The notes under the pieces were generated by a model, which worked only from the letters and a program-made list of their open reading frames with translations, searched no databases and was not told where the DNA came from. A DNA stretch of 64,000 nucleotides, taken from contig QZKH01000002.1 of NCBI GenBank assembly GCA_003598025.1, positions 10,133 through 74,132 of the forward strand, given 5' to 3'. Shown here one piece after another: positions 12,852 to 64,000 of the stretch (its first letter is position 1; each line of letters starts with the position of its first letter). Both the position numbers and the translations under genes were made by a program. Source of the DNA: Candidatus Omnitrophota bacterium (GTDB taxonomy: Bacteria; Omnitrophota; Gorgyraeia; Gygaellales; Profunditerraquicolaceae).

Positions 12852-12852
12852 T

Positions 12853-46976: not shown

Positions 46977-47869
46977 TGTTTAACATATTGAGGAGACCTT
47001 TAATAATTTCGATATTTGTTTTGTTTATATGCCTGCAGTTTATCACCGGGTGCAGAAGTAAGCCGAAGCAGGAAAAAATAAACGGGATCATCCCGGTAAA
47101 AATCAATAAGATAGAGTTAAAGAGCGTTAACGAGTCTATTGATTATGTGGGCGATATAAAAGCCAGGGATGAAGCGCTTATTTATCCCAAGGTAAGCGGT
47201 AAGATAGCTGAGAAGAAAATTGCCGAAGGCTCTAACGTAAAAAAAGGCGAAGCGATTGTTTATATTGACAGGGATGAAGTAGGCCTGAAATTCCAGAGCG
47301 CACCTGTTGAAAGCACAATAGATGGAGTTGTCGGAAGGGTATATGTAGATATAGGAGAGAACGTAGACCAGCAGACGCCTGTAGCTTTGGTAGTCAATAT
47401 GGATCAGGCAAAAATCAATCTTGACGTACCGGAAAAATATATATCCAGGATTTTGATAGAGCAGGAATCCAGTATAAAGGTCGATGCTTATCCGGATAAG
47501 GTATTTACCGGAAAAGTGACCAAGATCAGCCCAGTGGTAGACATTTCTACAAGGACAGCGCCCGTTGAAATTTTGGTGGATAACCCCGGACATGAATTAA
47601 AATCGGGGATGTTTGCCAGGGTAAACCTGGTAATAGACACAAAGGATAACGTGCCAGTGCTATTAAAGGAAGCGGTAATGGGTAAAGACCCCAATTTGTA
47701 TGTTTATATCATCGAGAACGGTAAAGCCGTACTAAAACAGGTCACAACAGGCATCAGGCATGGGCCATTTTATGAGATTAAGACCGGGTTAAAGGAGGGC
47801 GATTCAGTCGTTGTGGTTGGCCAACAAAAGTTGTATGAAGGGGCAAGCGTTGCAATAGAGAGGGAATAA
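46976..47869 (+). CDS. RND efflux periplasmic adaptor (membrane fusion protein)
   Basis: A lipobox-like N-terminus (FITGC), a biotin-lipoyl-like hairpin and a β-barrel pattern. It sits between the OEP and the RND pump. Confidence 0.75.
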   Translation: MFNILRRPLIISIFVLFICLQFITGCRSKPKQEKINGIIPVKINKIELKSVNESIDYVGDIKARDEALIYPKVSGKIAEKKIAEGSNVKKGEAIVYIDRDEVGLKFQSAPVESTIDGVVGRVYVDIGENVDQQTPVALVVNMDQAKINLDVPEKYISRILIEQESSIKVDAYPDKVFTGKVTKISPVVDISTRTAPVEILVDNPGHELKSGMFARVNLVIDTKDNVPVLLKEAVMGKDPNLYVYIIENGKAVLKQVTTGIRHGPFYEIKTGLKEGDSVVVVGQQKLYEGASVAIERE

Positions 47870-47870
47870 T

Positions 47871-50800: not shown

Positions 50801-51044
50801 AGCAGTAACAACCGGCGGCAGGGACCGCTTAAGACCTGTGTTAATGACTACTATTACTACTCTCGTAGGCCTTCTTCCGCTGGCTTTATTTCAGGGGGAA
50901 GGGTCTGAATCCTGGCAGCCTTTAGGTATTACCATGATAGGAGGCCTTACCGTTTCGACGCTGATTACGTTATTGTTTGTCCCGACGCTTTATGCTATAT
51001 TTGAATCCAGGGTCAAGAAGAATAAGAGGAAAACCAATGCATAA
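47871..51044 (+). CDS. RND superfamily efflux transporter (AcrB/HAE1-like)
   Basis: 1057 aa with a 12-TM, two-large-periplasmic-loop organisation. Conserved TM4 and TM10 regions are present (e.g. SLSSLAIASGMVVDNAIVVVDNV, GIVMLMGIVVNNAIVLI). Confidence 0.9.
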   Translation: MKLAEFGVKRPVANLMIFTAIIVLAFYSLTRLGVDSFPEIEPPSISVISSYPGANPEDVEIKVTEVLENQLATTPGIEKITSHSSEGSSVVTLKFSWGTDLDAASNDIRDRIEIAKRSLPDIPDEMDNPFIFKFNTSNIPILFMGITATQSYTELYDLLDDRIADPLRQLPGVGTVQFQGGGLERQINVWIDRERLQGYGFSILDIKNAIKAENITQPVGNIKVGLTDYSIRLPGEFTDPGQINSVVLGKRNGKIIYLRDVARVEDGFKEVTTIARVDEGRAIIMMVQKQSGTNTVEVADRVKKKLEELRYTLPPDVKMRLMFDNSEDIKTSLSSLKATTWFAILLVIVVVWFFLRQFAASMIVALTIPFSLLISFIYLFLSGKTINVISLSSLAIASGMVVDNAIVVVDNVWRRIEHGQRTSEASIFGTSEIFLAIAASTLTTIVVFMPLLFLTGVVGKLFGELAAIIIVTLSASLFTAVTFSPMLCSKWLKPDHKSLKAGLFNRMYAVSEQWFKSMENTYSNMLAWCLKYKKMVISISLGILIFVGLLTRFVGNEFIPEEDTGDLRISAHLPIGTRVEETDGLARKIEQIFKDEIPEAKYFYVRSGQLSGIGRAFGNVSGTHIVSAGIKLVPKTERKLSVKETAEVVRNRITAIPGVMKVDITTGNPMGRLITGGGKSIQVEIIGHSFEETDALALKIKGLIEGIPGAVEVSISREANRPELKIDVDRQKSSALGLDMSTIADTVNTFIQGSVASKYRESGDTYDIYVRADDFSRSDIEDIKNIPVVPADSAFSLSSGSNPRLSQDLRKTQITLSNIAEIRQENIPQEIERKNRERIVKVECNAYRRSTGKIVEDINKELKNMIIPAGIQVIIGGEAEEQAKAFKDLFLLLILGILLVYMVMAAQFESLLDPFIIMFSIPFTFIGVILAFIITGTNLSVISFLGIVMLMGIVVNNAIVLISYINILRARGYSMHEAVTTGGRDRLRPVLMTTITTLVGLLPLALFQGEGSESWQPLGITMIGGLTVSTLITLLFVPTLYAIFESRVKKNKRKTNA

Positions 51045-51048
51045 TAAA

Positions 51049-51333
51049 ATGTTGATGATAATATATAATGAGGCTTTGGATGAAGAAGTCATGGAATTAT
51101 TCCAGGGTTGCCAAGTGCAAAGCTACACCAAAGTAACCGGCGTATTCGGCAAAGGCGTACTTTCAGGCCCTCATCTTGGGAATGATATATGGCCCGGGAA
51201 AAACAATATACTTTATATAGTGAGTGATGATGAACAGTCAAAGTGTATGCTCGGCCGTGTAGCAGAACTAAGGAAGAAACTCGGGCATGAAGGTATCAAG
51301 GCCTTTGTTCTGCCGGTAGAATATACCACCTGA
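51049..51333 (+). CDS. Small protein downstream of the RND pump (possible GlnB/PII-like fold, DUF3240-like)
   Basis: About 95 aa, overlapping the RND stop. Small PII-like proteins often accompany RND operons. The start codon is ambiguous (ATG at 51037, 51049 or 51055). Low confidence. Confidence 0.3.
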   Translation: MLMIIYNEALDEEVMELFQGCQVQSYTKVTGVFGKGVLSGPHLGNDIWPGKNNILYIVSDDEQSKCMLGRVAELRKKLGHEGIKAFVLPVEYTT

Positions 51334-51351
51334 CATTAATAACCTTCCGTT

Positions 51352-52341: not shown

Positions 52342-52352
52342 GCTATTTTTTC

Positions 52353-52389
52353 TTGACAACAGTAAATTTTAATAGTAAAATTTTACTAT
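52353..52389 (+). promoter_or_regulatory. σ70-like promoter (TTGACA-N17-TAAAAT) whose -10 is overlapped by a perfect 16-bp palindrome TAGTAAAATTTTACTA, a putative operator at the head of the PKS cluster
   Basis: TTGACA at 52353-52358, a 17-nt spacer, TAAAAT at 52376-52381. The self-complementary 16-mer at 52374-52389 is read directly from the sequence. Confidence 0.5.
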
Positions 52390-52435
52390 ATTTTAATTTC
52401 AGAATATAACATACTATTAATATTGAGGTTAAGTT

Positions 52436-52738
52436 ATGGAATGGGATAAGAATACAGAAGATAAATTTAAACTTTTTATCTCAAAAATACCTATTTTTCA
52501 CCGCGGGATAACGGAGATAGCAGTAAGAAAGAGGGCTGAAGAAAACGCGATTTCCAGGAAATCAGCAATTATCCAGGAACAGGATGTATTAAGCGCTTTT
52601 TTTTCGGATGTTCCTTCGCCTTTCTACAGCATGATGGTCAGGGTTATGGAACAGTCGGGGTTTGATTACAAGAAATACGGTTTTCCCAAGAGTACTAATC
52701 CGTTGGTAGGCAATAGCAGCAATAAACCAATTAAATGA
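52436..52738 (+). CDS. PCP_red-like small protein (protochlorophyllide reductase 57-kDa subunit C-terminal domain family)
   Basis: KLFISKIPIFHRGITEIAVRKRAEENAI resembles the PCP_red motif (IPxFxR...E..A...G). It is 100 aa and the first gene after the cluster promoter. Confidence 0.4.
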   Translation: MEWDKNTEDKFKLFISKIPIFHRGITEIAVRKRAEENAISRKSAIIQEQDVLSAFFSDVPSPFYSMMVRVMEQSGFDYKKYGFPKSTNPLVGNSSNKPIK

Positions 52739-53739
52739 AAATTGCAGTTGTCGGCTCGGGAGCAATAGGCGGCCTGGTAGCCGGTTATTTGAGCCTTAAG
52801 GGCAAAGATGTAGTTCTTATCGGCCGCAGCAATTCCGTTGCAGCAATAAACAGCAAGGGTTTGTTTATAAGCGGGGTAAGGGGAGATTTCAAGGTTAATA
52901 TCCCTGTTAAGGATAAGCTAGTTTCGGATGTTGATTTAGCTATATTTTGCACAAAGAGCCAAGACCTGGAGCAATCGATATCACAGAACATAGATTTTAT
53001 TAAGCAAGCCCAGATTCTAACGACTCAGAACGGCATCCGTTCAGAGGGTATTGCGTTAAAGTACGCGGATAAAGCAAGTATCATCTCCAGCATTGTCATG
53101 TTTGGCTCTACAAATTTAGAGCCGGGCAGGATTGTACATAATTTCGAGGGTAATTGGATACTCGGCAGGCCTTTTATAGAAAACGACCGTACGCTTATAG
53201 ATGTTAGCCTGGTATTGAATGAAATATTTCCTACCGTAATAAGCCATAATATCAGGGCAATGAAGTTTTTAAAGATTTTTGTCAATGCTAATAATTGTAT
53301 CCCGGCGATACTGGGATTAAGCATGCAGGAAGCTTTTAGTGACACGGATACCAGCCGGATCAGTGTTGCCATCTGGCGCGAAGGTTTTGATATTGTCAAG
53401 AGGTCGGGCATCAATCTTGTATCTTTGCCTGATTTTCCTCTTGAGCGCTTGACCGGCATTATCAGCATGCCGATGGAAAGCGCTGCTAAAGTGATCTCAG
53501 GTATAATGTCCGGTTTAAGCAAAGAGCCATTATACGGCTCTATACTCCAGAGTATAAAAAGAGGCAAGGATACGGAGATAGATTATATTAACGGTGAATT
53601 TGTAAAGCTCGCTGCTGAAAACAAGCTCGCCGCACCGTTAAATAAACGCCTTGTTGAAATGGTGCATATAGTCGAAAAAAACGGAAAATTTTTTAGCAGA
53701 GAGCAGTTGATTGAGGAAACGAAAGGTTTGTTAGCTTGA
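52735..53739 (+). CDS. Ketopantoate reductase (ApbA/PanE) family NAD(P)H-dependent oxidoreductase
   Basis: MKIAVVGSGAIGGLVAGYL Rossmann N-terminus and the C-terminal SILQSIKRGKDTEIDYINGEF (ApbA_C signature). Its placement in the PKS cluster suggests a ketoreductase role rather than pantothenate synthesis. Confidence 0.7.
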   Translation: MKIAVVGSGAIGGLVAGYLSLKGKDVVLIGRSNSVAAINSKGLFISGVRGDFKVNIPVKDKLVSDVDLAIFCTKSQDLEQSISQNIDFIKQAQILTTQNGIRSEGIALKYADKASIISSIVMFGSTNLEPGRIVHNFEGNWILGRPFIENDRTLIDVSLVLNEIFPTVISHNIRAMKFLKIFVNANNCIPAILGLSMQEAFSDTDTSRISVAIWREGFDIVKRSGINLVSLPDFPLERLTGIISMPMESAAKVISGIMSGLSKEPLYGSILQSIKRGKDTEIDYINGEFVKLAAENKLAAPLNKRLVEMVHIVEKNGKFFSREQLIEETKGLLA

Positions 53740-53740
53740 T

Positions 53741-54340
53741 ATGGAAAACATAAATTCGCCGTTCCCACGCCTCAAATTAACCGTGATGAATGTTTATGGG
53801 CATTGTTATCACGGATATAAGAAAGGTGACGAATTAATTTTAGAAGATTTTACCCATCCTCCAAAATTTTTCTGCCTAGGCCTGGCGCATGCGCTTTTTC
53901 CTGTCATATATGCATTAAGTTTCGGGGCAAAGTTTCCATTTAGAGATAACCAGCGTTCACTGCTGGTAACCTGTCCTGACGGAGGGAAGTTAGAATTTAT
54001 GGCCGAGGTGCTTGATAAGCAGGGCAAAATTGAGAAGTTACCTAAAGCCCCTGATTTTAAAGGGCCTAACCCTAAAAAGATGGTTATAGAAGTAGTGCAG
54101 GCAAAAGGTAAATGTACCTTTGGTTATAAGGTAGGGGATAAATGGGAGACAAGCGGCTTGAAATGCATCCCCGGTTTTTGCGGCGCAGCTTTTCATTGTG
54201 CGTTTCCTGCGCTTTTTGCTTTAAATTTCGGCGCAAAGTTTTTATTTATGGAAAATCCGGATTCAATCGATACTGTTACTTGCCCGGATGGCGGCAATAT
54301 AGTATTTAAGGTTTCGCGGGTTAAGGAGAATAAGAAATAA
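53741..54340 (+). CDS. Tandem duplicated Cys/His-rich domain protein, TIGR04076-like (two ~90-aa repeats)
   Basis: Two repeats are visible directly. Repeat 1: GHCYHGYKKGDEL...FCLGLAHALFPVIYALSFGAKFPF...TCPDGG. Repeat 2: GKCTFGYKVGDKW...FCGAAFHCAFPALFALNFGAKFLF...TCPDGG. From memory, this motif set matches the TIGR04076 family of ~90-aa proteins, some of which are duplicated. Confidence 0.5.
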   Translation: MENINSPFPRLKLTVMNVYGHCYHGYKKGDELILEDFTHPPKFFCLGLAHALFPVIYALSFGAKFPFRDNQRSLLVTCPDGGKLEFMAEVLDKQGKIEKLPKAPDFKGPNPKKMVIEVVQAKGKCTFGYKVGDKWETSGLKCIPGFCGAAFHCAFPALFALNFGAKFLFMENPDSIDTVTCPDGGNIVFKVSRVKENKK

Positions 54341-54341
54341 T

Positions 54342-55604
54342 ATGAAAAAGAGAAGGGTAGTTATTACCGGCGTAGGGGTAATTTCGCCTAACGGCATAGG
54401 CAAAGAAAATGCATGGAAAGCTTTCACCGGCGGAAAATCAGGAGTAAAAAGGGTTGATGGTTTTGATGTGTCGGTATTTAATACTAAGATCGCCGCCGAA
54501 GTGAGAGATTTCAATCCGTTTAAGCTTGGGTTGACTCATGAAGAAGCTACGCGCATGGATAGGTATGTCCAATTTGGAGTGGTTGCCGCAGATATGGCTT
54601 TTAAGGACAGCGGGCTTGTGCTTTTAAACGAGGACCCTGAGCGTATCGGGGTATGCCTTGCAAACGCTATATGCGGCACAAAGTATATGGAGGAAGAATT
54701 TGCCCTTGTCACCGAAGACGGAAAGAAGCCGATTGACCCTTCAAAGGTCAGGCCGGATCTTTATGATGCTGCAATGTTTAATACCCCTTCGATTGAAATA
54801 TCTGCGAAATATAAATTGAGAGGGATCTGCGATACTTTATCTACGGGATGCACCGCAGGCACTGATTCACTTGGTTTCGGGCTTGAAACTATACAGGATA
54901 ATGGACACGATATAATGGTCTGCGGAGCTGCAGAAGCGCCAATTACGCCGATAACATTCGGGGCATTCGATGTGGTCAGTGTCTTATCAGCCAGAAACGA
55001 TGAGCCTGAACGGGCCAGCCGGCCGTTTGATAAAAAAAGAGACGGTTTTGTCCTGTCTGAAGGAGCAGGTATCTTGATCCTGGAAGAATTGGAGCATGCG
55101 CGCAGGCGCAATGCGAGGATCTACTGCGAAGTGTTGGGTTTCGGTACCAGCTGTAATGCCTATCATATGACAGACCTTCCTTCCGACGGCGCTGCCATGG
55201 CCAGATGTATAAGCCTGGCACTCTCCGACGCTTATTTAAAGCCCAAAGATATAGACCATATTAACGCGCACGGTTCATCGACGCGTATGAACGATATATT
55301 TGAGACAAATGCCTACAAGACCATATTCGGCGATTATGCATATAAACTACCCATCAGTTCCTTAAAGTCTATGATCGGGCATCCTTTGGCTGCTGCGAAT
55401 GCGGTTGAGCTTACGATGTGTTCGCTGATGTTCCAGTATAATATTTTACCACCAACGATAAATCAAGAAGAGAAAGACCCTTTGTGCGACTTAGACTATA
55501 TTCCTAACGTTGCGCGCAGCAAGAAAATAAACACAATATTAAAAACCAGCAGCGGTTTCTCGGGGATCCATTCTTCATTGGTATTAAGGAGATTCGATGA
55601 ATAA
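54342..55604 (+). CDS. Type II polyketide synthase ketosynthase α (KSα)
   Basis: RRVVITGVGVISPNGIGKENAWKAFTGGKSGVKRVDGFDVSVFNTKIAAEVRDFNP is close to the actinomycete KSα N-terminus (e.g. TcmK/ActI-ORF1). The active-site Cys is in STGCTAG. Both His are present (AYHMTD, NAHGSST), as is the GHPL motif. Confidence 0.8.
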   Translation: MKKRRVVITGVGVISPNGIGKENAWKAFTGGKSGVKRVDGFDVSVFNTKIAAEVRDFNPFKLGLTHEEATRMDRYVQFGVVAADMAFKDSGLVLLNEDPERIGVCLANAICGTKYMEEEFALVTEDGKKPIDPSKVRPDLYDAAMFNTPSIEISAKYKLRGICDTLSTGCTAGTDSLGFGLETIQDNGHDIMVCGAAEAPITPITFGAFDVVSVLSARNDEPERASRPFDKKRDGFVLSEGAGILILEELEHARRRNARIYCEVLGFGTSCNAYHMTDLPSDGAAMARCISLALSDAYLKPKDIDHINAHGSSTRMNDIFETNAYKTIFGDYAYKLPISSLKSMIGHPLAAANAVELTMCSLMFQYNILPPTINQEEKDPLCDLDYIPNVARSKKINTILKTSSGFSGIHSSLVLRRFDE

Positions 55605-56826
55605 GATCGCGATCACAGGATTAGGGATAGTCAGCCCTTCAGGGATAGGCAAGCGCCAGTTTTGGGCCAATGTTAAATCCGCAAGGTCATTTGTCAAAAA
55701 GATCACCCGTTTCGACGCTTCCAGGTACCCGTCGCATATCGCCGGCCAGATTGACGACCTTGATAAATACAGTAATTTTTCTGAGAGGCTGCTTAAGAAG
55801 ATTGATGCATTTTCGCATATGGCTTTAGTCGCCTCTGAAATGGCGATGCAGGATGCCGGTATAGATATAAAGAATGAAGACCCGAACTTAGTAGGTATAT
55901 TCTTAGGTAATGCTATCGGCGGCTGGCTTTATGCGGAGACCGAATTACGCGACCTATATATTGAAGGAAGGGAAGGAGTCTCTCCATATATGGCTTCAGC
56001 ATGGTTTCCTGCTGCGCCTCAAGGTCAGGTCTCCATTTATTATGGAATAAAAGGTTTCAGTAAAACTGTCGTTGCTGACAGGGCAAGCTCTTTGATGGCT
56101 TTAGGCTATGCCAGGAGCACTTTAGCCAAGAATAAATTAAATATGATTATTTCCGGAGGCATGGAAGCACCGGTTACGCCTTATGCGCTTCTCTGTTGTA
56201 ATACCTATGGAGCGCTCTCTAGAAATAATGAGCGTCCTGAAACTGCCTACAGGCCTTTTGACAGAGATAGGTCCGGTTTTGTTATCGGCGAAGGCGCAGG
56301 TATCGTAGTTATGGAGCCTATTGAACGGGCAAAAAAGCGAAATGCCAATATAATGGCCTTAATTTCAGGATACGGCACAACCTGTGACGGTTTTGACAGG
56401 ATAAATCCATCTTCCGATGGCAGAGAGTTAGCCCGGGCGATAAATATGGCTTTGGAAGATGCGCAAATCAGCGCCGACGAAATTGATTATATAAGCTTAG
56501 ATGGTTTAGGAGTAAGTTTATGGGATGATAGCGAAGTAAGGGCGATAAAAACCGTTTTCAAAGATAATGCGGCAAGAATACCCGCCAGCTGTCCTAAGTC
56601 GATGTTCGGTAATTTATTAGGCGCCTCCGGGGCAGTGGATTTGATAGCAACAGTTCTTAGCATGGAGAATAATTTGATCCCGCCTATACTTAACCTGGAA
56701 AACCCCGATCCCAAAGGTTTAAATTACGTACAGGGGCAGGCAAAGGACTATAAGGTCGGCAGGGCGCTGGTAATTTCACGCGGCAGGGGCGGGATTAACT
56801 CAGCGCTTGTTGTAGAGAAGCCGTAA
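55597..56826 (+). CDS. Ketosynthase β / chain-length factor (catalytically inactive KS partner)
   Basis: Overlaps the KSα stop (ATGA coupling). KS fold, but the active-site Cys position reads VVADRASS (Arg, not Cys or Gln). Both catalytic His positions are lost (GTTCDGFD, ISLDGLGV). Confidence 0.7.
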   Translation: MNKIAITGLGIVSPSGIGKRQFWANVKSARSFVKKITRFDASRYPSHIAGQIDDLDKYSNFSERLLKKIDAFSHMALVASEMAMQDAGIDIKNEDPNLVGIFLGNAIGGWLYAETELRDLYIEGREGVSPYMASAWFPAAPQGQVSIYYGIKGFSKTVVADRASSLMALGYARSTLAKNKLNMIISGGMEAPVTPYALLCCNTYGALSRNNERPETAYRPFDRDRSGFVIGEGAGIVVMEPIERAKKRNANIMALISGYGTTCDGFDRINPSSDGRELARAINMALEDAQISADEIDYISLDGLGVSLWDDSEVRAIKTVFKDNAARIPASCPKSMFGNLLGASGAVDLIATVLSMENNLIPPILNLENPDPKGLNYVQGQAKDYKVGRALVISRGRGGINSALVVEKP

Positions 56827-56861
56827 TAAGGCAAGCCAATGAAAATAACAACGGAGGATTT

Positions 56862-58322
56862 ATGAAAATATTATTTGTTATGCCTAAGGTGGGTGCGTGG
56901 GCAACCCATGGAATACACAGGTCGCCAAACCAGCTTTATGCACATTGGGCTGCCTATGTGCGCCAGAGAGGTTATGAAGATGTGGCTGTAATTGACGGAA
57001 AAGCCGACCAGATTTCTATGGACCAGTTGATTGAGCTTGTCAAAGAGAGAAATCCGGATGTCGTGGTAATGGGGGAGCAGCTGCATGGTTATGGCGGATA
57101 TGGTGTGTTACGCCATTTCAAAGATGCCGCAGCAGGAATAAAGAAGGCGCTTCCCGGCACAAAGATAATCCTCGGCGGGTTGTGGTATTCGGCAATGCCG
57201 GTCCCCACATTAGAAGAGAATCCGGGGGTCGATTTTGTGGTTATGGGGGAAGAGGAATCATTCGGAGATCTGATAGAAGCAATAGATAAAAATAAGCCAG
57301 TCAAAGACGTAGGAGGAGTGGCTAGCCGTATTGATGGTAAGGCTGTAATGGGGCCGCATAAGCCGTTATTGAAAGATTTGGATTTGTTGCCGTTACCGGC
57401 ATACGATCTTTTTCCAATGGATAAATATGTGGGCCATACTTATTGGAAACCATTTGTTGATATGGTTACATCACGCGGGTGCCCTTCGGCATGCACATTC
57501 TGTTACGAGTGGGATCAGTATGATCCGCGCCACCCCGGGGATTTTCTTACCTGGAGGGCGAAATCACCTGAAAGGGTAATGGAAGAGTTGAATCTCTTGC
57601 ATAATAAGTATGGAGTAAAAGTAGTGGTTATTCAGGACGATAATTTTAATGTTGACCCCGAGCGGGTGCAGAAATTTTGCGAACTTAAAAAAGCATCAAA
57701 CAACCCTATTAAATGGGTCTCTTTGGGCCGGGCAATAGACTGGGTGAATTGCGAATCCATTCTGCCGTTAATGAAAGAAAACGGCCTGTTTATGGGTGTT
57801 TTCGGGATTGAGGTTACGACACAGTCGGAGCTTAAGAAAATAGCCAAAGGCATAACCATCGAACAGATCCAGAAAACAATCGATATCCTGCGTAAAAATG
57901 ATATCGCCATTGTTGCCGATATAATGATGGGTTTTGATTATGATACCGAGGCAATCATAAAGCAGAGATTTGAGTTTACCGATGCTGTAGACCCGGATAT
58001 CCTTTGGGTCGGCTATGTTACTCCTGCGCCTAATTCACCGATGTGGAGGATCTCTATGAAGAAGGGATGGATTGATCCAAAAAAAGTAGATTTTAGCACT
58101 TGGGATTTTTTGCATCCAGTTATACCTACCGACCACCTTAGTATCGAAGATCTGGGGAGGTTAGGATCATGGTGCATGCGCGAATTCTTCTCTAAACCAG
58201 GGAGGATCAACAGGATTATGGAAAGTAATTTTGATACCCTGGCTAAACTCTGCTTTCAGGATGTTATGGCAGGCATCAATAAATGGGAAGCAGCCGCGAC
58301 TAAGGGAGAAGTACAGATATAA
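56862..58322 (+). CDS. B12-binding class B radical SAM enzyme
   Basis: An N-terminal cobalamin-binding-like domain, then SRGCPSACTFC (CxxxCxxC). The 486-aa size is typical of BchE/HpnP-like class B radical SAM methyltransferases and cyclases. Confidence 0.8.
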   Translation: MKILFVMPKVGAWATHGIHRSPNQLYAHWAAYVRQRGYEDVAVIDGKADQISMDQLIELVKERNPDVVVMGEQLHGYGGYGVLRHFKDAAAGIKKALPGTKIILGGLWYSAMPVPTLEENPGVDFVVMGEEESFGDLIEAIDKNKPVKDVGGVASRIDGKAVMGPHKPLLKDLDLLPLPAYDLFPMDKYVGHTYWKPFVDMVTSRGCPSACTFCYEWDQYDPRHPGDFLTWRAKSPERVMEELNLLHNKYGVKVVVIQDDNFNVDPERVQKFCELKKASNNPIKWVSLGRAIDWVNCESILPLMKENGLFMGVFGIEVTTQSELKKIAKGITIEQIQKTIDILRKNDIAIVADIMMGFDYDTEAIIKQRFEFTDAVDPDILWVGYVTPAPNSPMWRISMKKGWIDPKKVDFSTWDFLHPVIPTDHLSIEDLGRLGSWCMREFFSKPGRINRIMESNFDTLAKLCFQDVMAGINKWEAAATKGEVQI

Positions 58323-58403
58323 ATTAGTTCATAGTTCATGGAAAACTGGGACACAAAGACACACGTCACAAGGTCACAAGAGAATCAAGTTCATGGTTCA
58401 TGG
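58323..58403 (+). repeat. Two copies of the short element (A)TTAGTTCAT(A/G)GTTCATGG, flanking a GACACA/GTCACAAG low-complexity tract, in the radical-SAM/ACP intergenic region
   Basis: Copy 1 at 58323-58341 begins immediately after the TAA stop. Copy 2 is at 58388-58403. Between them lies GACACAAAGACACACGTCACAAGGTCACAAG. The same element recurs at 59785-59802. Confidence 0.5.
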
Positions 58404-58423
58404 TAATGATGGAGGATAAATAA

Positions 58424-58660
58424 ATGGAGACGAAGGCAAAAATAAAGGAAGTTATAGTAAATCTGCTCAGGATCAAACCCGAAGAGCTTAAAGACGGAAT
58501 GAGCCTGCAGGATAGTATCGGCGTTGATTCTACAGAGATGGTCGAAGCCGTAATTGCCCTTGAAAAGGCTTTTGGCGTAAAGTTAAGCGCTAAGGAAATA
58601 ACAAAAAGCTTGACCCTGGATGAGATCAGCAGCATCGTCGATTCTAAAATAGGCAAATAA
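58424..58660 (+). CDS. Acyl carrier protein
   Basis: A 78-aa protein with the GVDSTEMVE phosphopantetheine-attachment motif (Ser in DS) on a four-helix ACP scaffold. RBS GGAGG. Confidence 0.8.
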   Translation: METKAKIKEVIVNLLRIKPEELKDGMSLQDSIGVDSTEMVEAVIALEKAFGVKLSAKEITKSLTLDEISSIVDSKIGK

Positions 58661-59457
58661 TGAAGATAGTCGATTTAAGTTTACCAATTGATGAGAAGGC
58701 ATTTGAAGTCCATCATGTTGATATTGAGCGCATAACTCATGCTGGAGGGGTGGAAAAGTTTAACCGTGTTATTATGGGCAAGACCTTGTCTGGGAAGATA
58801 AAATATGCCCTAGGCGTGCGCTTAGTAAAAAAAGAAGATTTGCCGGATAAGGAATTTTTATCGCTTGAGATAGTGCATGCGCCGGTACATGTAGGCACAC
58901 ACCTGGATTATTCCTTTCATTACGGCTCAAAGTCAGAAAATCGTCCCTCCAAAACCGCAGAGGAGATCCCTCTTGAGTGGTGTTATTCGGAGGGAGTCAA
59001 ATTAGACCTGACCTACAAAAAGCCCAATGAAGTAATTGCAAGGCAGGATATTGAAGAGGCTCTGCGCAAAATAAATTACGCGCTTAAACCAGGTAATATC
59101 GTGTTTTTACAAACAGGGGCTGATAAATTATACGGTTCTCCCGGGTATTTTACTGATTATCCAGGAGTTGATATTTCAGCAATCGATTATTTGCTGGATA
59201 AGGGGATAAAAGTTTTTGGCACAGATACTATGGGCATTGACCGTCCGTATAGATTTATGCTCAAAGAATTTTTGGATACAAAAGACCCTAAAAAATTATA
59301 CCCTGCCCATTTCTACGGCAGGATAAGAGAATTTATTCATATTGAACGGCTGGCGAACCTGGATAAACTTCCTGGCTTCGGATTCAAGGTATCATGTTTT
59401 CCGGTTAAGATTAAGAAAACCGGAGCCGCCTGGGCCAGGGTAGTTGCTTTTGTTTGA
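58660..59457 (+). CDS. Cyclase family protein (PF04199-type metal-dependent hydrolase/cyclase fold)
   Basis: The HAPVHVGTHLDYSFH (HxGTHxD) signature, GTDTMGID, and the 265-aa size. Confidence 0.7.
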   Translation: MKIVDLSLPIDEKAFEVHHVDIERITHAGGVEKFNRVIMGKTLSGKIKYALGVRLVKKEDLPDKEFLSLEIVHAPVHVGTHLDYSFHYGSKSENRPSKTAEEIPLEWCYSEGVKLDLTYKKPNEVIARQDIEEALRKINYALKPGNIVFLQTGADKLYGSPGYFTDYPGVDISAIDYLLDKGIKVFGTDTMGIDRPYRFMLKEFLDTKDPKKLYPAHFYGRIREFIHIERLANLDKLPGFGFKVSCFPVKIKKTGAAWARVVAFV

Positions 59458-59469
59458 AAGGAGCAATTT

Positions 59470-59784
59470 ATGAGCCTTCCTTTATGGAAAGATTTGGAAG
59501 GGATGATGGAATTCCCCAGAGAAGGAGTTTTTAGCAAGGTTTTAGTTAAAACTCCCGAATCTAATCATACCCTGATGTGCCTTGCGCGGGGTAGCGATAT
59601 TTCAGAACATACATCTACGCGGGAAGCAGTGGTTACTGTATTAAAAGGCGAAGGTATTTTTATCCTTGAGGGTAAAGAAATAAAAATGAAGCCGGGAGTG
59701 TTTATATATATGCCGAAGAATGCCCCGCATTCATTAAGCGCAGATTCGGACTTAGCGATATTATTGAGTTTGTTTGGAAAATAA
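59470..59784 (+). CDS. Cupin domain protein (TcmJ-like, single cupin)
   Basis: 104 aa. Cupin motifs G(x)5HxH/E...G and PKNAPHSL. Its position between the cyclase and the ARO/CYC genes matches tetracenomycin-type clusters. Confidence 0.6.
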   Translation: MSLPLWKDLEGMMEFPREGVFSKVLVKTPESNHTLMCLARGSDISEHTSTREAVVTVLKGEGIFILEGKEIKMKPGVFIYMPKNAPHSLSADSDLAILLSLFGK

Positions 59785-59802
59785 TTAGTTCATGGTTCAT
59801 GG
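59785..59802 (+). repeat. Third copy of the TTAGTTCATGGTTCATGG element, immediately after the cupin TAA stop
   Basis: Exact match to copy 2 at 58388-58403 over 16 nt. The element appears to be confined to the PKS cluster. Confidence 0.5.
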
Positions 59803-59837
59803 TTTGCGGTCAGTAACCTTTATTACAGGAGGGATCC

Positions 59838-60278
59838 ATGGGGCACACATGTAATTCTATAGTTATCAATGCTCCTTACGAGCTGGTATTTGATATCTCT
59901 AATGATATCCCGAGATGGACAGAGTTATTCGGCGGCGAATACAAGAAGGCAGAAGTTGTAAAAAAAGAAGCAAATAAAATCATATTCCGCTTAACTGACG
60001 ATGAAGATAAGAGCTGGCAGTCGTGGAGGCTGTTATTTAAGGACAAATATTTTGCTTACGCAGAGCGCGAAGAACCGAAATTCCCTTTTAAGTTTATGAA
60101 AATAATCTGGCTTTATACGCCAAGGGGCAGGGGCGTTGAACTTACCTGGATACAGCATTTTGAAATGGATGAAAAAGCAAAATTTAACGACCAGCAGGTA
60201 GAAGGCTTTATTAATAAACATTCCAAAGATAACTTGGAGATTTTTAAGCGTATCATTGAAAAAGAAGCGGGCAAGTGA
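59838..60278 (+). CDS. SRPBCC polyketide aromatase/cyclase (TcmN N-terminal-domain-like ARO/CYC)
   Basis: From memory, NSIVINAPYELVFDISNDIPRWTELFG...WIQHFEMDEKAKFNDQQ...IFKRIIE aligns with the TcmN ARO/CYC domain ([25 protein letters not shown]...WVQEFDM...FDN...IKKIIE). Confidence 0.75.
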   Translation: MGHTCNSIVINAPYELVFDISNDIPRWTELFGGEYKKAEVVKKEANKIIFRLTDDEDKSWQSWRLLFKDKYFAYAEREEPKFPFKFMKIIWLYTPRGRGVELTWIQHFEMDEKAKFNDQQVEGFINKHSKDNLEIFKRIIEKEAGK

Positions 60279-61396
60279 AGAAACTGACTTTTTTCCTCCT
60301 TTGTCTGGAGGGTGCAGTGTTATCATTCAATGTGGCGGCAACCGCGGCGATCGTGCCGTCTGTTGCTAAAGATTTTGCTCTTTCTCAATTCTTAGCAGGT
60401 AAAATAGTCTGGCTCTATATGCTCCCTTATGGGCTGGCGGCACTTATTTACGGTCCTCTAGTCAGGCTCATCGATGCAAAAAAGATAGAGTTGTTCTGCC
60501 TTTTCTTTTTTTCGCTGGCAAATTTGCTCGCAGGCCTCTCCGGGAGTATATACATGCTTTTTGCCTGCAGGTTGATGATGGGGATTTTTGGCGCATCTGT
60601 TATACCATTGGCTTTAATACTCATTGCCAGGCATATTGAACCGGATAAACGAGGCAGGCTTATCGGTATTTTTTTTAGCGCAACCTTTATCGCTTCGCTT
60701 TTAGGCCTGCTTTTAAGCGCTGTTATTCCCTGGAGGATGATTTATATTATCCCCGCAATTTTAGGGTTTATTACATGGGGGATTGTTTATTTTTATTTAC
60801 CGAGCTTTAAAACGGACGTTTCAAAATTCCAGCTAAGTTATATTGCTGCCTTTAAGGACAAAGCAGTATTATTTATATTCCTTTATATATTTTTAGTGAG
60901 TTTTATTTACCATGGGATACAGCAGTGGCTGGGGGTATATTTCTCGACACAGTATTCGTTTACCCAGTTTGTGATAAGCATGCTTATCACGCTGACCAGT
61001 TTAAGCGGGATTTTTGGAGAAGTTATCGGCGGAAGGCTTGCAGATAAGCTTGGCAGAATAAAGACTATAGACATAGGCTTAATTCTGATGCTGATTATAG
61101 TTTTAGGGCTGATTGCCAGGACGAATTTATTTGTTTTGGCTTTACTTATGATTGCCTGGGGTTTTGGCTGGACTTTAAACCATGCAGGCCTGTCAACCGC
61201 CCTTACTGATTTACCGGATAAATTCTTAAATGAAGCTGCAAGCCTTAACAGCTCGGTCCGTTTTCTTTCAGGCGGCATAGGTGCAGCAGCCGGCGGCGCC
61301 CTGATGCAGAGAAGCTTTAATTTCGGTTTCATAGTCTTTGCTATCGGCCTTATAGCATTGCTTTTTTTAAGCAGGGAAATTATAATTTCAAAGTAG
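60275..61396 (+). CDS. MFS transporter
   Basis: 373 aa and about 12 predicted TM helices. The conserved loop 2-3 motif is GPLVRLIDAKK and there is a DKxGR-like motif (ADKLGRIK). GTG start overlapping the previous stop. Confidence 0.7.
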   Translation: MKKLTFFLLCLEGAVLSFNVAATAAIVPSVAKDFALSQFLAGKIVWLYMLPYGLAALIYGPLVRLIDAKKIELFCLFFFSLANLLAGLSGSIYMLFACRLMMGIFGASVIPLALILIARHIEPDKRGRLIGIFFSATFIASLLGLLLSAVIPWRMIYIIPAILGFITWGIVYFYLPSFKTDVSKFQLSYIAAFKDKAVLFIFLYIFLVSFIYHGIQQWLGVYFSTQYSFTQFVISMLITLTSLSGIFGEVIGGRLADKLGRIKTIDIGLILMLIIVLGLIARTNLFVLALLMIAWGFGWTLNHAGLSTALTDLPDKFLNEAASLNSSVRFLSGGIGAAAGGALMQRSFNFGFIVFAIGLIALLFLSREIIISK

Positions 61397-61408
61397 AGGA
61401 GGTAACAG

Positions 61409-62182
61409 ATGTCAGATTTAAAGGGAAAAGTAGCAATTGTAACTGGGGCCAGCCGTGGCATAGGCAAGGCGCTTGCATCCACAGCAGCATCTTTGGGGAT
61501 AAACTTGGCTATTGCAGCAAGAAACGAAGCGCCCCTGAAAGAGACAGCAGAAGAATTGTCAAAAAAATATAAGGTTCAAATCTTGCCTGTTGCCTGTGAC
61601 GTTACAAAGCTTTCGGACCTTGAAAACCTGGTAAATAAAACAAAGTCTAAATTCGGTGGAATAGACATTCTTATTAATAATGCCGGAGTGTCGAGCCAAT
61701 ACCCTTTTGAGAAACAGCCGATCGAGGATTTTGAGAAGCTTGCGCATACCAATTATCTGGGTTATGTGCGCCTAATACGACTTGTGATAAATGATATGAT
61801 AAATAATAAATACGGAGCAATAATCAATATGGTTTCAGGCTCAACATTGGTTGACCCTGTTCCAAGAAGCTTTATAGTCTACAGTTCATTAAAAGTCGGT
61901 TTGCGTGCTTTTTCAAAAGGTCTGTTTTGGGAGCTGCGTGATTACGGGATCAAAGTCACTTCAATATTACCGGGAGTGACCGATACTGATTTAACCGGTA
62001 AATTGGATAATATAACGGGGGACACATCGCGCCTTATGACAACAGAGGCTATTGAAAATGCCCTTAAATTTGCTTTAACTGTTCCGGCAAATGTATGTCC
62101 GCTGGAAATTTCAGTTATTAACCAGCAGACGCCGTGGGTTAAGCCGGTGATTCCGTTTAAGCAGGAGCATCCGAACAAATAG
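61409..62182 (+). CDS. Short-chain dehydrogenase/reductase (polyketide ketoreductase-like)
   Basis: KVAIVTGASRGIGKALA (TGxxxGxG), NNAG, the catalytic S...YSSLK (YxxxK), and the 257-aa size. Confidence 0.85.
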   Translation: MSDLKGKVAIVTGASRGIGKALASTAASLGINLAIAARNEAPLKETAEELSKKYKVQILPVACDVTKLSDLENLVNKTKSKFGGIDILINNAGVSSQYPFEKQPIEDFEKLAHTNYLGYVRLIRLVINDMINNKYGAIINMVSGSTLVDPVPRSFIVYSSLKVGLRAFSKGLFWELRDYGIKVTSILPGVTDTDLTGKLDNITGDTSRLMTTEAIENALKFALTVPANVCPLEISVINQQTPWVKPVIPFKQEHPNK

Positions 62183-62187
62183 AATTA

Positions 62188-62214
62188 GTTTACAGTGCAC
62201 AGCGCACTGTAAAC
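62188..62214 (+). other. Perfect 11-bp stem / 5-nt loop hairpin (GTTTACAGTGC-acagc-GCACTGTAAAC) right after the SDR stop, related to the TTAGTTCA element
   Basis: Read directly. The preceding AATTAGTTTACAGTGCACAG resembles the AATTAGTTCATAGTTCATGG element. It is followed by AGAAAAAGGAG (the RBS of the next gene), not a T-run, so it is not a classical terminator. Confidence 0.45.
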
Positions 62215-62231
62215 AGAAAAAGGAGAAGAAG

Positions 62232-62831
62232 ATGAAAAAAACAATATTGTTTGCTGTGGCGTTTGCCGTGTTTTTTACAGGGATTTCTTACGCGGAAAGC
62301 TTGTTGATCGATGATTTTGAGGGTGTTATTTCCGGCGGGGCGCAAGGTACGGTTGATTTTGGTTCAGGCAACGGTTCAAGCCTGAATGTAAGCGCTTCCA
62401 CAGGCACAAAGTATTCTGGTAACCAATCTTTAGAGCTTAAATATGATGCGATTAGCGGTGGATATATGTGGGCTGCCCGCGGTTCCAGTTTAGACGCAGC
62501 TGGCGCCGGATGGTTGATTAAACCCGAAGATATTGAATGGGGTGGTTACAGCAAAATAAGTTTTTATATGTTCGGCAGCAATTCCGGGGCAATGGTTGCT
62601 TTTGATATAAAGGATAGCGGCAGTGAAATCTGGAGATTCCTGATTGAAGATAATTTTACAGGCTGGAAGCAGATAGTCTGCGAGTTTAATAAGTTTATGG
62701 CAAGGGATGATTGGCAGCCGCAGGATGCAGATAATAACTTGGAGCTTGATTTTCCTCTAAAGAGCTTTCAGTTTGAGGTTTTGCCTGAAGCAAAAGGCAC
62801 GGTCTATTTTGATAAGGTTGAGCTGGAATAA
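62232..62831 (+). CDS. Secreted protein, possibly CIA30/CBM11-like β-sandwich
   Basis: Signal peptide (ILFAVAFAVFFTGISYA), then LLIDDFEG, which resembles the start of CIA30/carbohydrate-binding β-sandwich domains. Weak support. Confidence 0.35.
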   Translation: MKKTILFAVAFAVFFTGISYAESLLIDDFEGVISGGAQGTVDFGSGNGSSLNVSASTGTKYSGNQSLELKYDAISGGYMWAARGSSLDAAGAGWLIKPEDIEWGGYSKISFYMFGSNSGAMVAFDIKDSGSEIWRFLIEDNFTGWKQIVCEFNKFMARDDWQPQDADNNLELDFPLKSFQFEVLPEAKGTVYFDKVELE

Positions 62832-62905
62832 ATAATAATGGGGGGCACTTCTCTGGTCAATGAGAGAAACGGTCCCTGATGAGTTGAAGAAACGGACCTA
62901 AAGAT

Positions 62906-63298
62906 ATGGATAAGAAGGATATTCGTAATTTGAAAAAAAGGTATCTTATCTGGTTTTATAAAATGGCTAAAGAAGCCTTAGATAAGGTGGAGAGGAAGTT
63001 TACCCAGCTTGAGGTTGACGGTATCGTTCTTAGAGAGTTAAAGATGCTGGACAAGGGCAGAATGGTCCAAACTAAGATCGCTGAGTTTGAAAAATACATT
63101 GATAATAAGAAGAAGGACGGGATAGGCCTTAAATACAACGGCAAGGAATTGCGGGATGAGTATTTATATCTGGTTTTAAGGTTAAAGGCTGTAGAAAAAA
63201 CAATAGTAATAGAGTTGGGCAAGAAGGCCCTTAGCGAAATAAAAAGCTTATATGAAGACGAAATGACTGAACGCATCATAAAAAGCACAGAGCATTAA
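62906..63298 (+). CDS. Hypothetical protein
   Basis: A 130-aa basic, helical ORF in the + strand operon context. No motif recognised. Confidence 0.35.
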   Translation: MDKKDIRNLKKRYLIWFYKMAKEALDKVERKFTQLEVDGIVLRELKMLDKGRMVQTKIAEFEKYIDNKKKDGIGLKYNGKELRDEYLYLVLRLKAVEKTIVIELGKKALSEIKSLYEDEMTERIIKSTEH

Positions 63299-64000
63299 TA
63301 TGATTATCGACGCACACAGCCACTGGTTGCCGGAAGAGATTATAAACAACGCCCATTTTTTCCATAAGGGATGGGGCGATATTGAATCCCAGCTTAAGAT
63401 GATGGATGAAGCGGGGATTAAGAAGTCAGTGCTTACATATCCTACCTCTGATGCTCATCTTAAGCTTGGCAGCATCAGCGAGGTAGCGCATATCTATAAT
63501 GATAATGTAGGTAAGATCATTAAGAGATATCCGGGAAGATTTATCGGCGCAGCGATATTGCCCGTCGACAACAGCCAGGATACCCTTGATGAATTAAAGC
63601 GCGCCAGGGAAAAACTTGGGTTTAGAGCGATTTCATTGGCTTCAAGTTATAACGGCCATTATTTGGATGAAAGTATATTCATCCCGGTTTATAAGACAGC
63701 GCAAAAAGAAAATATTCCTATCTTTATTCATTCCCAGATTGTGCATCCTATCGGGTTTGAGAGAGTAAATGACCCGCTCCTTACCCCGGTAATAGAATAT
63801 GTCTTTGATTCCACGATATCTGTCGGTAAATTACTTATGTCAGGTATTTTAAAGGATTTTGCGGATGTAAAATTTATCTTCGCGCATTTTGCCGGAGTAA
63901 TACCGTTTTTAAAACATCGTTTTGACACGACTTATGCTATGCTGCGCGGTATGGATTTCGTCAAAGATTTAGGGAGCGCACCTTCAGAATTGCTTAGAAA
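63299..64000 (+). CDS. Amidohydrolase-2 family (ACMSD-like metal-dependent hydrolase/decarboxylase), 3'-truncated at the window end
   Basis: ATG at 63299 overlaps the previous stop. The translation MIIDAHSHWLPEE... carries the amidohydrolase_2 N-terminal HxH-like motif. The frame stays open to the end of the window. Confidence 0.6.

Follow-up and report, generated by a model that had tools for sequence, protein, structure and literature searches.

A Probable Aromatic Type II Polyketide Synthase Operon with Linked Accessory Genes in Uncultivated Omnitrophota

An Operon for a Probable Aromatic Type II Polyketide Synthase

The 64,000-nucleotide stretch of Candidatus Omnitrophota DNA analysed here (hereafter the window) ends in a run of 15 back-to-back open reading frames (ORFs) on the + strand, from position 52436 to beyond the window end (>64000), with several stop/start codon overlaps. 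We hold with good confidence that this operon encodes an aromatic type II polyketide synthase (PKS) and that its accessory genes have a functional link to the PKS. It encodes a ketosynthase (KSα), its partner KSβ or chain-length factor (CLF), an acyl carrier protein (ACP), cyclases, a class B radical S-adenosylmethionine (radical SAM) enzyme and further accessory proteins (Table 1). The arrangement of the whole operon is far beyond chance; the same gene order is found in 80/80 related loci, as far as their contigs reach. The family to which the cluster belongs occurs in uncultivated bacteria that are strict anaerobes or mostly so.

All the genes named in a first-pass annotation of this region, made from the sequence alone, are present as co-directional + strand ORFs, and its family assignments largely hold with Pfam and NCBIfam profiles, by which all families below were assigned. 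The ApbA-family reductase and the tandem TIGR04076 protein are upheld by their profile scores, as are the two ketosynthases (ketoacyl-synt), the PF04199 cyclase, the major facilitator superfamily (MFS) transporter (MFS_1) and the short-chain dehydrogenase/reductase (SDR; adh_short) by Pfam. The radical SAM enzyme, described as B12-binding and of class B, matches both PF02310 (E 1.2e-11) and PF04055 (E 9e-20) and has a CX3CX2C motif at C207/C211/C214, and the ACP carries Ser36 in the expected GVDST motif. A terminal amidohydrolase-2 gene (PF04909) is indeed there, but it starts at 63300, one base past the end given for the cluster, and runs off the window; the named genes stand, while two ORFs within the same span, the CBM_11-like gene (62232-62831) and a 130-aa gene (62906-63298), had gone unmentioned. 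The expectation of a non-actinobacterial host proved right, the CLF and the TIGR04076 protein being 100% identical to proteins of Candidatus Omnitrophota metagenome-assembled genomes (MAGs).

Two labels had to be dropped. The first ORF had been called PCP_red-like; its 100-aa product gives faint hints of DUF2621 (E 0.0024) and PCP_red (PF08369, E 0.044), both under the curated cutoffs. It is found at the same position in 56 related loci with a mean identity of 65%. "Tetracenomycin-like" is an overstatement for the cluster as a whole, as the nearest characterised type is the "ancestral" architecture of the clostrubin and dendrubin clusters; the cupin gene is present in only 12/80 orthologous clusters, and no TcmI or ABM-type proteins were found in the cluster with the Pfam and NCBIfam profiles.

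The Ketosynthase Pair

The catalytic triad attributed to the KSα (Cys170-His310-His347) is intact in an alignment with the KSα of Streptomyces, Clostridium, Azospirillum and Bacillus and with E. coli FabF. The CLF was correctly read as lacking all three catalytic residues, with Arg/Asp/Asn in those columns, and the coupling of the two genes is seen in an 8-nt overlap. A neighbour-joining tree was built from 411 columns with 200 bootstraps and E. coli FabF as the root. In it, the KSα joins those of Streptomyces, Clostridium, Azospirillum and Bacillus in the type II PKS KSα clade, with 99.5% bootstrap support, and the CLF falls among the other CLFs with 100%. In each case, the sister is a sequence from a Deltaproteobacteria MAG. 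The first-pass annotation had taken a position among FabF or lipid-type ketosynthases, together with SRPBCC and cupin proteins that do not group with ARO/CYC and TcmJ homologues, as the sign of a lipid pathway; in this tree, with its few FabF sequences, the pair instead falls with the aromatic type II PKS clades and not with FabF, and so the aromatic type II PKS reading stands.

Against PDB structures, the KSα scores 383 bits with actinorhodin KSα and 373 bits with Photorhabdus AntD, compared with 353.5 bits for the best FabF, 239 bits for the ishigamide KS, and 283 and 204 bits for the heterodimeric KS pair 9s5h. A 5-residue insertion is common to this protein and the type II PKS KSα of Streptomyces, Azospirillum and Bacillus, and is absent from FabF and all CLFs. 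Among plasmid sequences, tblastn matched it best to KSα genes in clusters annotated as type II PKSs, those of Azospirillum (52%), Bacillus (49%) and Streptomyces (46-47%), the Streptomyces matches adjoining genes for a TcmI cyclase, a "ketosynthase chain-length factor" and an aromatase/cyclase. The plasmid-borne type II PKS clusters of Azospirillum brasilense (L081) and Bacillus bombysepticus (L082), with KSα 49-52% identical to that of the window, could serve as tractable, cultivable comparison systems.

An exhaustive HMMER search over 1.8 billion protein cluster representatives placed the nearest single-domain relatives of the CLF in a Deltaproteobacteria MAG (58%), an unassigned MAG (46%), Clostridium beijerinckii and C. 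puniceum (43%) and Ktedonobacter racemifer (39%). Most of these nearest relatives are without the catalytic triad, and most have Arg at the Cys position. The surrounding motif, ADRASS, is identical in the Bacillus and Azospirillum plasmid CLFs, and reads ADRASG in Clostridium and SDRASG in Ktedonobacter, with the same Arg. Since Arg at the former Cys position is shared by these non-actinomycete CLFs (Clostridium, Ktedonobacter, Azospirillum and Bacillus), it is a feature of the branch and not evidence against membership of the wider type II PKS family.

Conservation across Omnitrophota

Peptide patterns of the radical SAM enzyme were run over the one-genome-per-species GTDB representatives, which gave at least 265 relatives; the best 80 loci were compared, by tblastn of every window protein. 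The best 80 of the 265 relatives are all in Omnitrophota-type MAGs, with radical SAM identities of 84-92%. Assemblies in the third-party annotation (TPA) section named "uncultured Planctomycetales bacterium" carry the same cluster (radical SAM 87-92%; loci L007, L010, L011, L022, L027, L034, L035, L037, L046, L065, L069 and L078). Their labels probably reflect a coarse classification at the level of the Planctomycetes-Verrucomicrobia-Chlamydiae (PVC) group.

Wherever a contig reaches, a strictly collinear core was found, comprising the genes for the 100-aa protein, ApbA, TIGR04076, KSα, CLF, radical SAM enzyme, ACP, PF04199 cyclase, aromatase/cyclase (ARO/CYC) and SDR. The mean identities are listed in Table 1; that of the KSα is about 81% among true orthologues and 77% if a few contig-end cross-hits are counted. 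Identities of 78% for the non-catalytic CLF and 89% for the radical SAM enzyme, compared with about 60% for the neighbouring genes, argue for strong purifying selection. Such conservation is unusual for a secondary-metabolite cluster.

Other genes of the operon are less constant. The cupin gene is accessory, with a clean presence/absence pattern between the cyclase and ARO/CYC genes, and so is the MFS gene (45/80 related loci), with clean insertion/deletion. The CBM_11-like gene is a frequent but not constant neighbour (39/80 loci), and the 130-aa gene is syntenic in 54/80 loci with a mean identity of 51%. The latter is followed by the Amidohydro_2 gene in 49/49 related loci that reach far enough.

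Linkage through Rearrangement and across Phyla

In sister loci, the Amidohydro_2 gene is followed by three genes, encoding a PNP_UDP_1 nucleoside phosphorylase (41/42), an IF-2B/MtnA-type isomerase (40/42) and a class II aldolase with a fused SCP2 domain (39/42). This trio lies at L047:18340-21055 in an Omnitrophota genome (38-42 other loci are alike) and at L085:18447-21242 in a Deltaproteobacteria MAG. The isomerase passes TIGR00524 (205.6 vs 185.85), whereas the phosphorylase and the aldolase are under all equivalog cutoffs, the phosphorylase being nearer the uridine/DeoD type than MtnP. Phosphorylase, isomerase and class II aldolase is the established order of the dihydroxyacetone phosphate (DHAP) shunt for 5'-deoxyadenosine and 5'-methylthioadenosine (MTA) (PMC6079011, PMC10986504). 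The sister loci show this succession of families beside a radical SAM gene, and the trio looks like such a shunt. They differ from the shunt in the C-terminal SCP2 domain of the aldolase and in the position of the trio inside a polyketide cluster. We know of no description of an SCP2 fusion for the 5-deoxyribose salvage aldolase.

The Deltaproteobacteria MAG locus (L085) encodes, in order, an MMPL transporter, DUF1329, radical SAM enzyme, aldehyde:ferredoxin oxidoreductase (AFOR), ApbA, TIGR04076, KSα, CLF, ACP, cyclase, ARO/CYC, MFS, AFOR, Amidohydro_2, an amine oxidase, the phosphorylase, two isomerases and the aldolase-SCP2 protein. Identities to the window proteins are 52% (radical SAM enzyme), 48-49% (ApbA), 57% (TIGR04076), 65% (KSα) and 58% (CLF). 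The AFOR genes, of the tungsten type, lie at L085:4851-6824 and 14177-16156, and none is present in the window. AFOR together with an amine-oxidase/phytoene-desaturase-like flavoprotein was seen in the Deltaproteobacteria MAG loci L085, L095 and L128 and in the unassigned metagenome loci L106, L107, L111 and L115.

A metagenome scan with the Deltaproteobacteria CLF recovered the same families in at least four gene orders: the trio and radical SAM gene 5' of the 100-aa gene with a second radical SAM paralogue at the end; the radical SAM gene after the cyclase gene; the radical SAM gene after the SDR gene; and the version with amine oxidase, radical SAM enzyme and AFOR. All 15 contigs of at least 15 kb bearing a Deltaproteobacteria-type CLF (15/15) have the radical SAM gene. 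The second paralogue, about 50% identical, lies 3' of Amidohydro_2 in L114, L117, L119, L121, L122, L124, L125 and L158. A locus from an unassigned MAG has ApbA, KS, CLF, ACP, cyclase, ARO/CYC, an FMN reductase, Amidohydro_2 and amine oxidases, with no radical SAM gene on the contig; two of its ORFs have the size of a single TIGR04076 repeat, one with a tblastn match. The locus of the Clostridium clostrubin producers has in common only KS, CLF, cyclase, ARO/CYC, ACP and Amidohydro_2. ApbA and KS/CLF are conserved together in Omnitrophota, Deltaproteobacteria MAGs and one unassigned MAG.

That this linkage has been kept through rearrangement and inter-phylum transfer indicates that ApbA, TIGR04076, the radical SAM enzyme, the SDR, Amidohydro_2 and the trio work with the PKS. 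The SCP2 fusion, the MMPL and DUF1329 genes of the Deltaproteobacteria MAG locus, a TP_0789-like gene in locus L089 and the RND genes upstream of the cluster point to a hydrophobic product at the cell envelope. Elsewhere in the 64-kb window, no homologues of AFOR, the cluster-type amine oxidase, the phosphorylase, the isomerase or the aldolase were found. An Amino_oxidase ORF at 6054-7358 has no relation to the cluster-linked amine oxidase.

The Radical SAM Enzyme and the Reductases

By profile, the radical SAM enzyme is nearest to BchE (E 4.5e-58; 197 bits vs a cutoff of 481) and HpnJ (E 4.3e-45; 154 bits vs 578), and is a member of neither family; the class B methyltransferase models are weaker (E 1e-31 or worse). 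BchE, the anaerobic Mg-protoporphyrin monomethyl ester cyclase, and HpnJ, of hopanoid cyclitol-ether synthesis, also combine B12-binding and radical SAM domains and are O2-independent, but the scores here are far below their cutoffs and there is no tetrapyrrole or hopanoid context at the cluster. The substrate is presumably the ACP-bound or free polyketide. In strict anaerobes such an enzyme could stand in for the O2-dependent anthrone-type oxygenases or form a ring; it may instead act in C-methylation.

The ApbA-like reductase passes TIGR00745 (171.6 bits vs a cutoff of 141), and the TIGR04076 protein scores 100.7 bits against a cutoff of 33, its two repeats being 37.5% identical to each other. 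Only incidental mentions of TIGR04076 were found in the literature. For the SDR, the best model is that of a 3-ketoacyl-ACP reductase (152 bits vs a cutoff of 286), and no PDB match was obtained at E <= 1e-30, so it is not a close relative of FabG or ActKR. This distance, together with the monodomain TcmN-type cyclase, points to a role in tailoring and away from the canonical C-9 ketoreduction. Our confidence in any specific tailoring chemistry is low.

Cyclases and a Putative Decarboxylase

The SRPBCC protein groups with aromatases/cyclases, as had been supposed: its significant PDB matches (E 1.6e-24 to 3.7e-21) are all to TcmN ARO/CYC or WhiE-type cyclases, the next match being at E >= 0.38. 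It aligns with TcmN over the full length (E 1.6e-24), and the alignment retains the residues at TcmN positions W28, F32, Y35, W65, S67 and R69, among which Tyr35 and Arg69 are essential pocket residues of TcmN. The PF04199 protein is probably a second/third-ring cyclase in the OxyN-type position of the ancestral architecture; its homologues adjoin KS/CLF in Clostridium, Bacillus plasmid and MAG clusters. The KS-CLF-ACP set with a TcmN-type and an OxyN-type cyclase has been described as this ancestral, non-actinomycete type II PKS architecture (PMC7693217), and the window operon has it, encoding a monodomain TcmN-type ARO/CYC and a PF04199 cyclase along with the minimal PKS.

A full-length orthologue of the Amidohydro_2 protein has as its best PDB relatives the 5-carboxyvanillate (LigW), ACMS and gamma-resorcylate decarboxylases (E 1e-23 to 1e-19), which fits a predicted activity of the LigW/ACMSD-type, non-oxidative aromatic-acid decarboxylase family. 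With such relatives, the protein would suit a step in which a phenolic polyketide acid loses its terminal carboxyl. A terminal decarboxylation step has been proposed for dendrubins and pyxidicyclines (PMC7693217).

Comparison with Known Systems

The clusters most like that of the window are the clostrubin-type cluster of C. beijerinckii and C. puniceum and those for dendrubin, Photorhabdus Ant and pyxidicycline, in which KSα-CLF precedes a PF04199 cyclase and a monodomain TcmN-type ARO/CYC. Also alike are the discrete ACP, the presence of Amidohydro_2 among the cluster genes, Arg in the CLF at the position of the KSα Cys and the anaerobic host. The clostrubin-type Clostridium proteins are, however, only 42-43% (CLF) and 47% (KSα) identical to those of the window. 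The Clostridium locus has no tblastn match or Pfam-annotated counterpart for the radical SAM enzyme, ApbA or TIGR04076 and lacks the 5'-deoxynucleoside trio; it has its own phosphopantetheinyl transferases, FabH and hydrolases. The clostridial cluster is limited to a few species, whereas the Omnitrophota cluster is kept across hundreds of species genomes.

The actinomycete systems (actinorhodin, tetracenomycin, WhiE) share the minimal PKS logic, with KSα 46-47% identical and the KSα-specific insertion. They differ in the Gln of their CLF, the window CLF having Arg and being more FabF-like than actinorhodin CLF-like. The actinomycete oxygenases (ABM and FAD monooxygenases) are absent here; the window type has oxygen-independent kinds of enzyme instead, such as the B12-binding radical SAM enzyme and, in its relatives, tungsten-type AFOR. 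The host is a low-GC, Gram-negative candidate phylum, unlike the hosts of actinomycete PKSs.

In ladderane clusters, too, radical SAM enzymes accompany a pair of one active and one inactive FabF (bioRxiv 10.64898/2026.05.19.726425). The anammox ladderane Cluster I (amxFabF2/amxFabFmut, amxACP, amxFabZ) resembles the window operon in this pairing, in a dedicated ACP, in the radical SAM enzyme and in its PVC anaerobe host. It has a FabZ, which the window cluster does not. The window cluster has aromatic cyclases, a putative phenolic-acid decarboxylase and a KSα that groups with those of aromatic PKSs, and its radical SAM enzyme does not reach the ladderane-type model.

Surveys of the antiSMASH type have called "ladderane" clusters in Omnitrophota (PMC9902471), and a 2023 catalogue lists "Candidatus Omnitrophica" KS-CLF pairs without further analysis (PMC10132072). 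The main phylum-level study of Omnitrophota makes no mention of ketosynthases or secondary metabolites and reports patchy isoprenoid-quinone pathways (PMC10066038). Our search of the literature on Omnitrophica/Omnitrophota type II PKSs found no description of this cluster. New relative to the literature that we found are the extended gene set, the housekeeping-level conservation and the link of the PKS to a radical SAM/5'-deoxynucleoside module.

Proposed Pathway and Alternative Explanations

In the proposed pathway, KSα/CLF would use malonyl units to assemble, on the ACP, a poly-beta-keto chain that is left unreduced; the TcmN-like enzyme would close and aromatise the first ring, and the PF04199 cyclase would form further rings. 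The Amidohydro_2 protein would take the terminal carboxyl off a phenolic acid intermediate. The radical SAM enzyme and the reductases would provide oxygen-independent tailoring, by C-methylation or by BchE-like anaerobic oxidation or ring formation, and keto or aldehyde reductions. The trio that lies just past the window end in sister genomes would most likely dispose of the 5'-deoxyadenosine made by the radical SAM enzyme. As the enzymes are more conserved than their neighbours and the gene content is near-invariant, a strain-specific antibiotic is a less likely product than a hydrophobic polyphenol or quinone of physiological importance, such as a pigment or a redox-active compound of the envelope.

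Several observations weigh against this interpretation. By PDB score, the CLF is closer to FabF structures (299 bits) than to actinorhodin CLF (245 bits), and the Gln of actinomycete CLFs, associated with decarboxylative priming, is absent (VADRASS vs VADQAGG in Streptomyces). The neighbour-joining tree holds few FabF sequences and no aryl-polyene, ladderane or anammox references. The roles suggested for the radical SAM enzyme, ApbA, TIGR04076 and the SDR come from family resemblance, with all radical SAM matches below cutoff, and a core function would be argued from conservation. The trio is known from orthologous loci alone, the window ending before its position.

It is very improbable that the operon serves a lipid pathway, whether a variant of type II fatty acid synthesis (FAS-II) or a system resembling those for ladderanes, aryl polyenes or highly-reducing type II PKS products, which would make an unusual fatty acyl or polyene chain without aromatic rings. 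Both ketosynthases do match the FabF model strongly (462 and 377 bits), the CLF has FabF as its best PDB matches, and the SDR resembles 3-ketoacyl-ACP reductases; moreover, ladderane clusters have a comparable pairing with radical SAM enzymes, such clusters have been called in this phylum, and housekeeping-level conservation would suit a membrane lipid. Yet both scores miss the cutoff of the FabF equivalog TIGR03150 (493.75), and neither the cluster nor the related loci have a dehydratase (FabZ/FabA) or enoyl reductase that we could find. An identity of the pair as FAS-II FabF was rejected on the missed cutoff and the lack of FabZ/FabI-type partners in the cluster, and a ladderane-type lipid cluster on the lack of FabZ and the score of the radical SAM enzyme with the ladderane-type model TIGR04072 (71.8 bits vs a cutoff of 360). 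The ishigamide KS and the 9s5h pair score well below actinorhodin KSα, the TcmN-type ARO/CYC, PF04199 cyclase and putative phenolic-acid decarboxylase are co-conserved, and the KS pair lies within the aromatic PKS clades of the neighbour-joining tree. A different role for the radical SAM enzyme is also improbable, if less so: it might add a 5'-deoxyadenosyl radical to the polyketide, in the manner of HpnH with diploptene and of MqnE in futalosine synthesis, after which the phosphorylase would strip the base (like HpnG/MqnB), the ribosyl would be isomerised and the aldolase would cleave it; a short carbon side chain would be left on a hydrophobic aromatic core, which the SCP2 domain would hold. 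The trio does stay with the radical SAM and PKS genes through rearrangements, adjoins the radical SAM gene in several metagenome contigs and is present in 39-41/42 Omnitrophota loci and the Deltaproteobacteria MAG. The phosphorylase matches the hopanoid-associated HpnG model (E 8e-15) and the radical SAM enzyme HpnJ, the aldolase is fused to a lipid-binding SCP2 domain, and the Deltaproteobacteria version has AFOR genes. The radical SAM enzyme, however, has a B12-binding domain, and to our knowledge HpnH and MqnE, the known adenosyl-adding enzymes, are not B12-dependent. The gene order of the trio is that of the established DHAP shunt, which makes salvage the simpler reading; the trio also lies outside the window, and its phosphorylase and aldolase do not reach their equivalog cutoffs.

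We consider it unlikely that this is an ordinary niche-specific secondary-metabolite cluster for a clostrubin- or dendrubin-like antibiotic or pigment, horizontally spread and with the non-PKS genes as mere neighbours. The nearest characterised relatives, those of the clostrubin producers and the dendrubins (PMC7693217), do make antibiotics or pigments; the presence of the cluster in at least two phyla implies transfer, the MFS and cupin genes come and go, and efflux genes adjoin it. Against this stand the identical gene order in 80 species-level genomes, enzymes better conserved than the flanking genes, and "extra" genes that remain PKS-linked after rearrangement and across phyla. The GC content of the cluster is 0.428 vs 0.407 for the remaining window, and no mobile-element genes were noticed at its borders; a recent horizontal acquisition is unsupported on both counts.

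The aromatic PKS reading can be extended, speculatively and with little confidence, to a polyketide polyphenol or quinone made without O2. In many Omnitrophota and some Desulfobacterota, it would be a core compound, either a redox-active part of the envelope or an electron carrier of the membrane. The BchE-like B12 radical SAM enzyme would here replace O2-dependent oxygenases, with a dedicated 5'-deoxyadenosine disposal module in the cluster. Mycobacteria make "polyketide quinones" with type III PKSs, and the compound would be their type II counterpart. Such a product would account for the housekeeping-level conservation and for the patchy isoprenoid-quinone pathways of the phylum (PMC10066038).

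Type II PKSs have been studied almost wholly as makers of actinomycete antibiotics, and here at least 80 species genomes from an uncultivated phylum of nanobacteria keep one nearly unchanged. It goes along with enzyme types that need no oxygen, namely the B12 radical SAM enzyme, TIGR04076 and the ApbA-like reductase, joined in relatives by tungsten-type AFOR and the 5'-deoxynucleoside module. Should it make a core metabolite, ideas on the purpose of aromatic polyketides would change, TIGR04076 and a BchE/HpnJ-like radical SAM subfamily would gain a first functional context, and anaerobic solutions for the O2-requiring steps of known pathways would come into sight. Even under the ordinary reading, these clusters are an untapped, well-defined family from anaerobes, and their compact size (about 12-15 kb) makes expression tests realistic.

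Operon Layout and Neighbouring Genes

The features of the operon and its upstream flank are listed in Table 1. The best sigma-70-like promoter match in 51000-64000 (11/12 positions) sits in the gap between a dus gene and the first cluster gene, and its first base, 52353, is the start coordinate that the first-pass annotation gave to the cluster. As a promoter it is only suggestive, the site totals in the promoter and terminator scans being no higher than the shuffle expectation. The hairpin after the SDR gene is possibly an internal terminator or attenuator.

Table 1. Coordinates of the operon genes, signals and upstream transport genes, with mean identities to related loci where determined.
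Feature	Position	Strand	Remarks	Mean identity
TolC-like OEP, HlyD-type adaptor, AcrB-type RND pump, PII-like protein	45711..51333	+	directly upstream of cluster	RND pump 64%; PII-like protein 57%
Sigma-70-like promoter match	52353..52381	+	TTGACA-17-TAAAAT	
100-aa protein	52436..52738	+	first operon gene; stop overlaps start of next gene	
ApbA/PanE-family NAD(P)H-dependent reductase	52735..53739	+	ApbA E 4e-31, ApbA_C E 1e-19	
Tandem TIGR04076 protein	53741..54340	+	two Cys/His-rich repeats	82%
KSα	54342..55604	+	triad intact	see text
CLF (KSβ)	55597..56826	+	triad replaced	78%
Class B (B12-binding) radical SAM enzyme	56862..58322	+	B12-binding + Radical_SAM	89%
ACP	58424..58660	+	PP-binding E 1.5e-8	
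PF04199 cyclase family protein	58660..59457	+	E 6e-28	76%
Cupin_2 protein	59470..59784	+	E 1.6e-12	
Monodomain TcmN-type ARO/CYC	59838..60278	+	SRPBCC; Polyketide_cyc2/Polyketide_cyc	81%
MFS transporter	60275..61396	+	MFS_1	
Classical SDR reductase	61409..62182	+	adh_short E 2e-51	84%
Palindromic hairpin	62188..62214	.	12-bp stem; between SDR and CBM_11-like genes	
CBM_11-like protein	62232..62831	+	hydrophobic N-terminus, secreted; E 9e-24	
130-aa protein	62906..63298	+	no family	
Amidohydro_2 protein	63300..64000	+	5' 233 codons, gene cut by window end; PF04909 E 1e-17	

The TolC/HlyD/RND set upstream is possibly an export system and may or may not belong to the cluster, directly upstream of which the RND gene lies in 15 related loci and the PII gene in 14. 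The PII-like ORF, as called, overlaps the 3' end of the RND gene by 68 nt. A Dus (dihydrouridine synthase) gene lies at 51352-52341 between the PII-like gene and the cluster; it is missing at this site in 80/80 related loci, where RND-PII abuts the cluster directly, and looks like a lineage-specific insertion. AccA, the acetyl-CoA carboxylase carboxyltransferase alpha subunit, is encoded at 43592-44542 (E 7e-152), 8 kb 5' of the PKS, and is a possible source of malonyl-CoA, though it is probably a plain housekeeping gene.

The window as a whole has a GC content of 41% and a strong strand bias: the + strand of 1-64000 holds nearly every long ORF, the GC skew is >0 in 32/32 two-kb bins and the cumulative skew climbs monotonically. 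Other genes of the window encode glycosyltransferases, PabB/PabC-like enzymes, EF-G, PurH and MnmE. Hydrogenase maturation genes are found at 11736-14152 and 22577-23590, for HypF, HypD and a HypE-like AIR-synthase-family protein, the HypF consisting of the C-terminal Kae1-like domains only (371 aa). Between them are genes for an 812-aa transglutaminase/DUF3857 protein and a 648-aa protein without a family. At 23790-26955, a lysine-2,3-aminomutase-type radical SAM gene (LAM_C + Radical_SAM) comes after a pair of D-Ala-D-Ala-ligase-like ATP-grasp genes. Finally, an 840-aa signalling protein with multiple PAS domains, GGDEF and an HD-GYP-type HD domain is encoded at 35861-38383.

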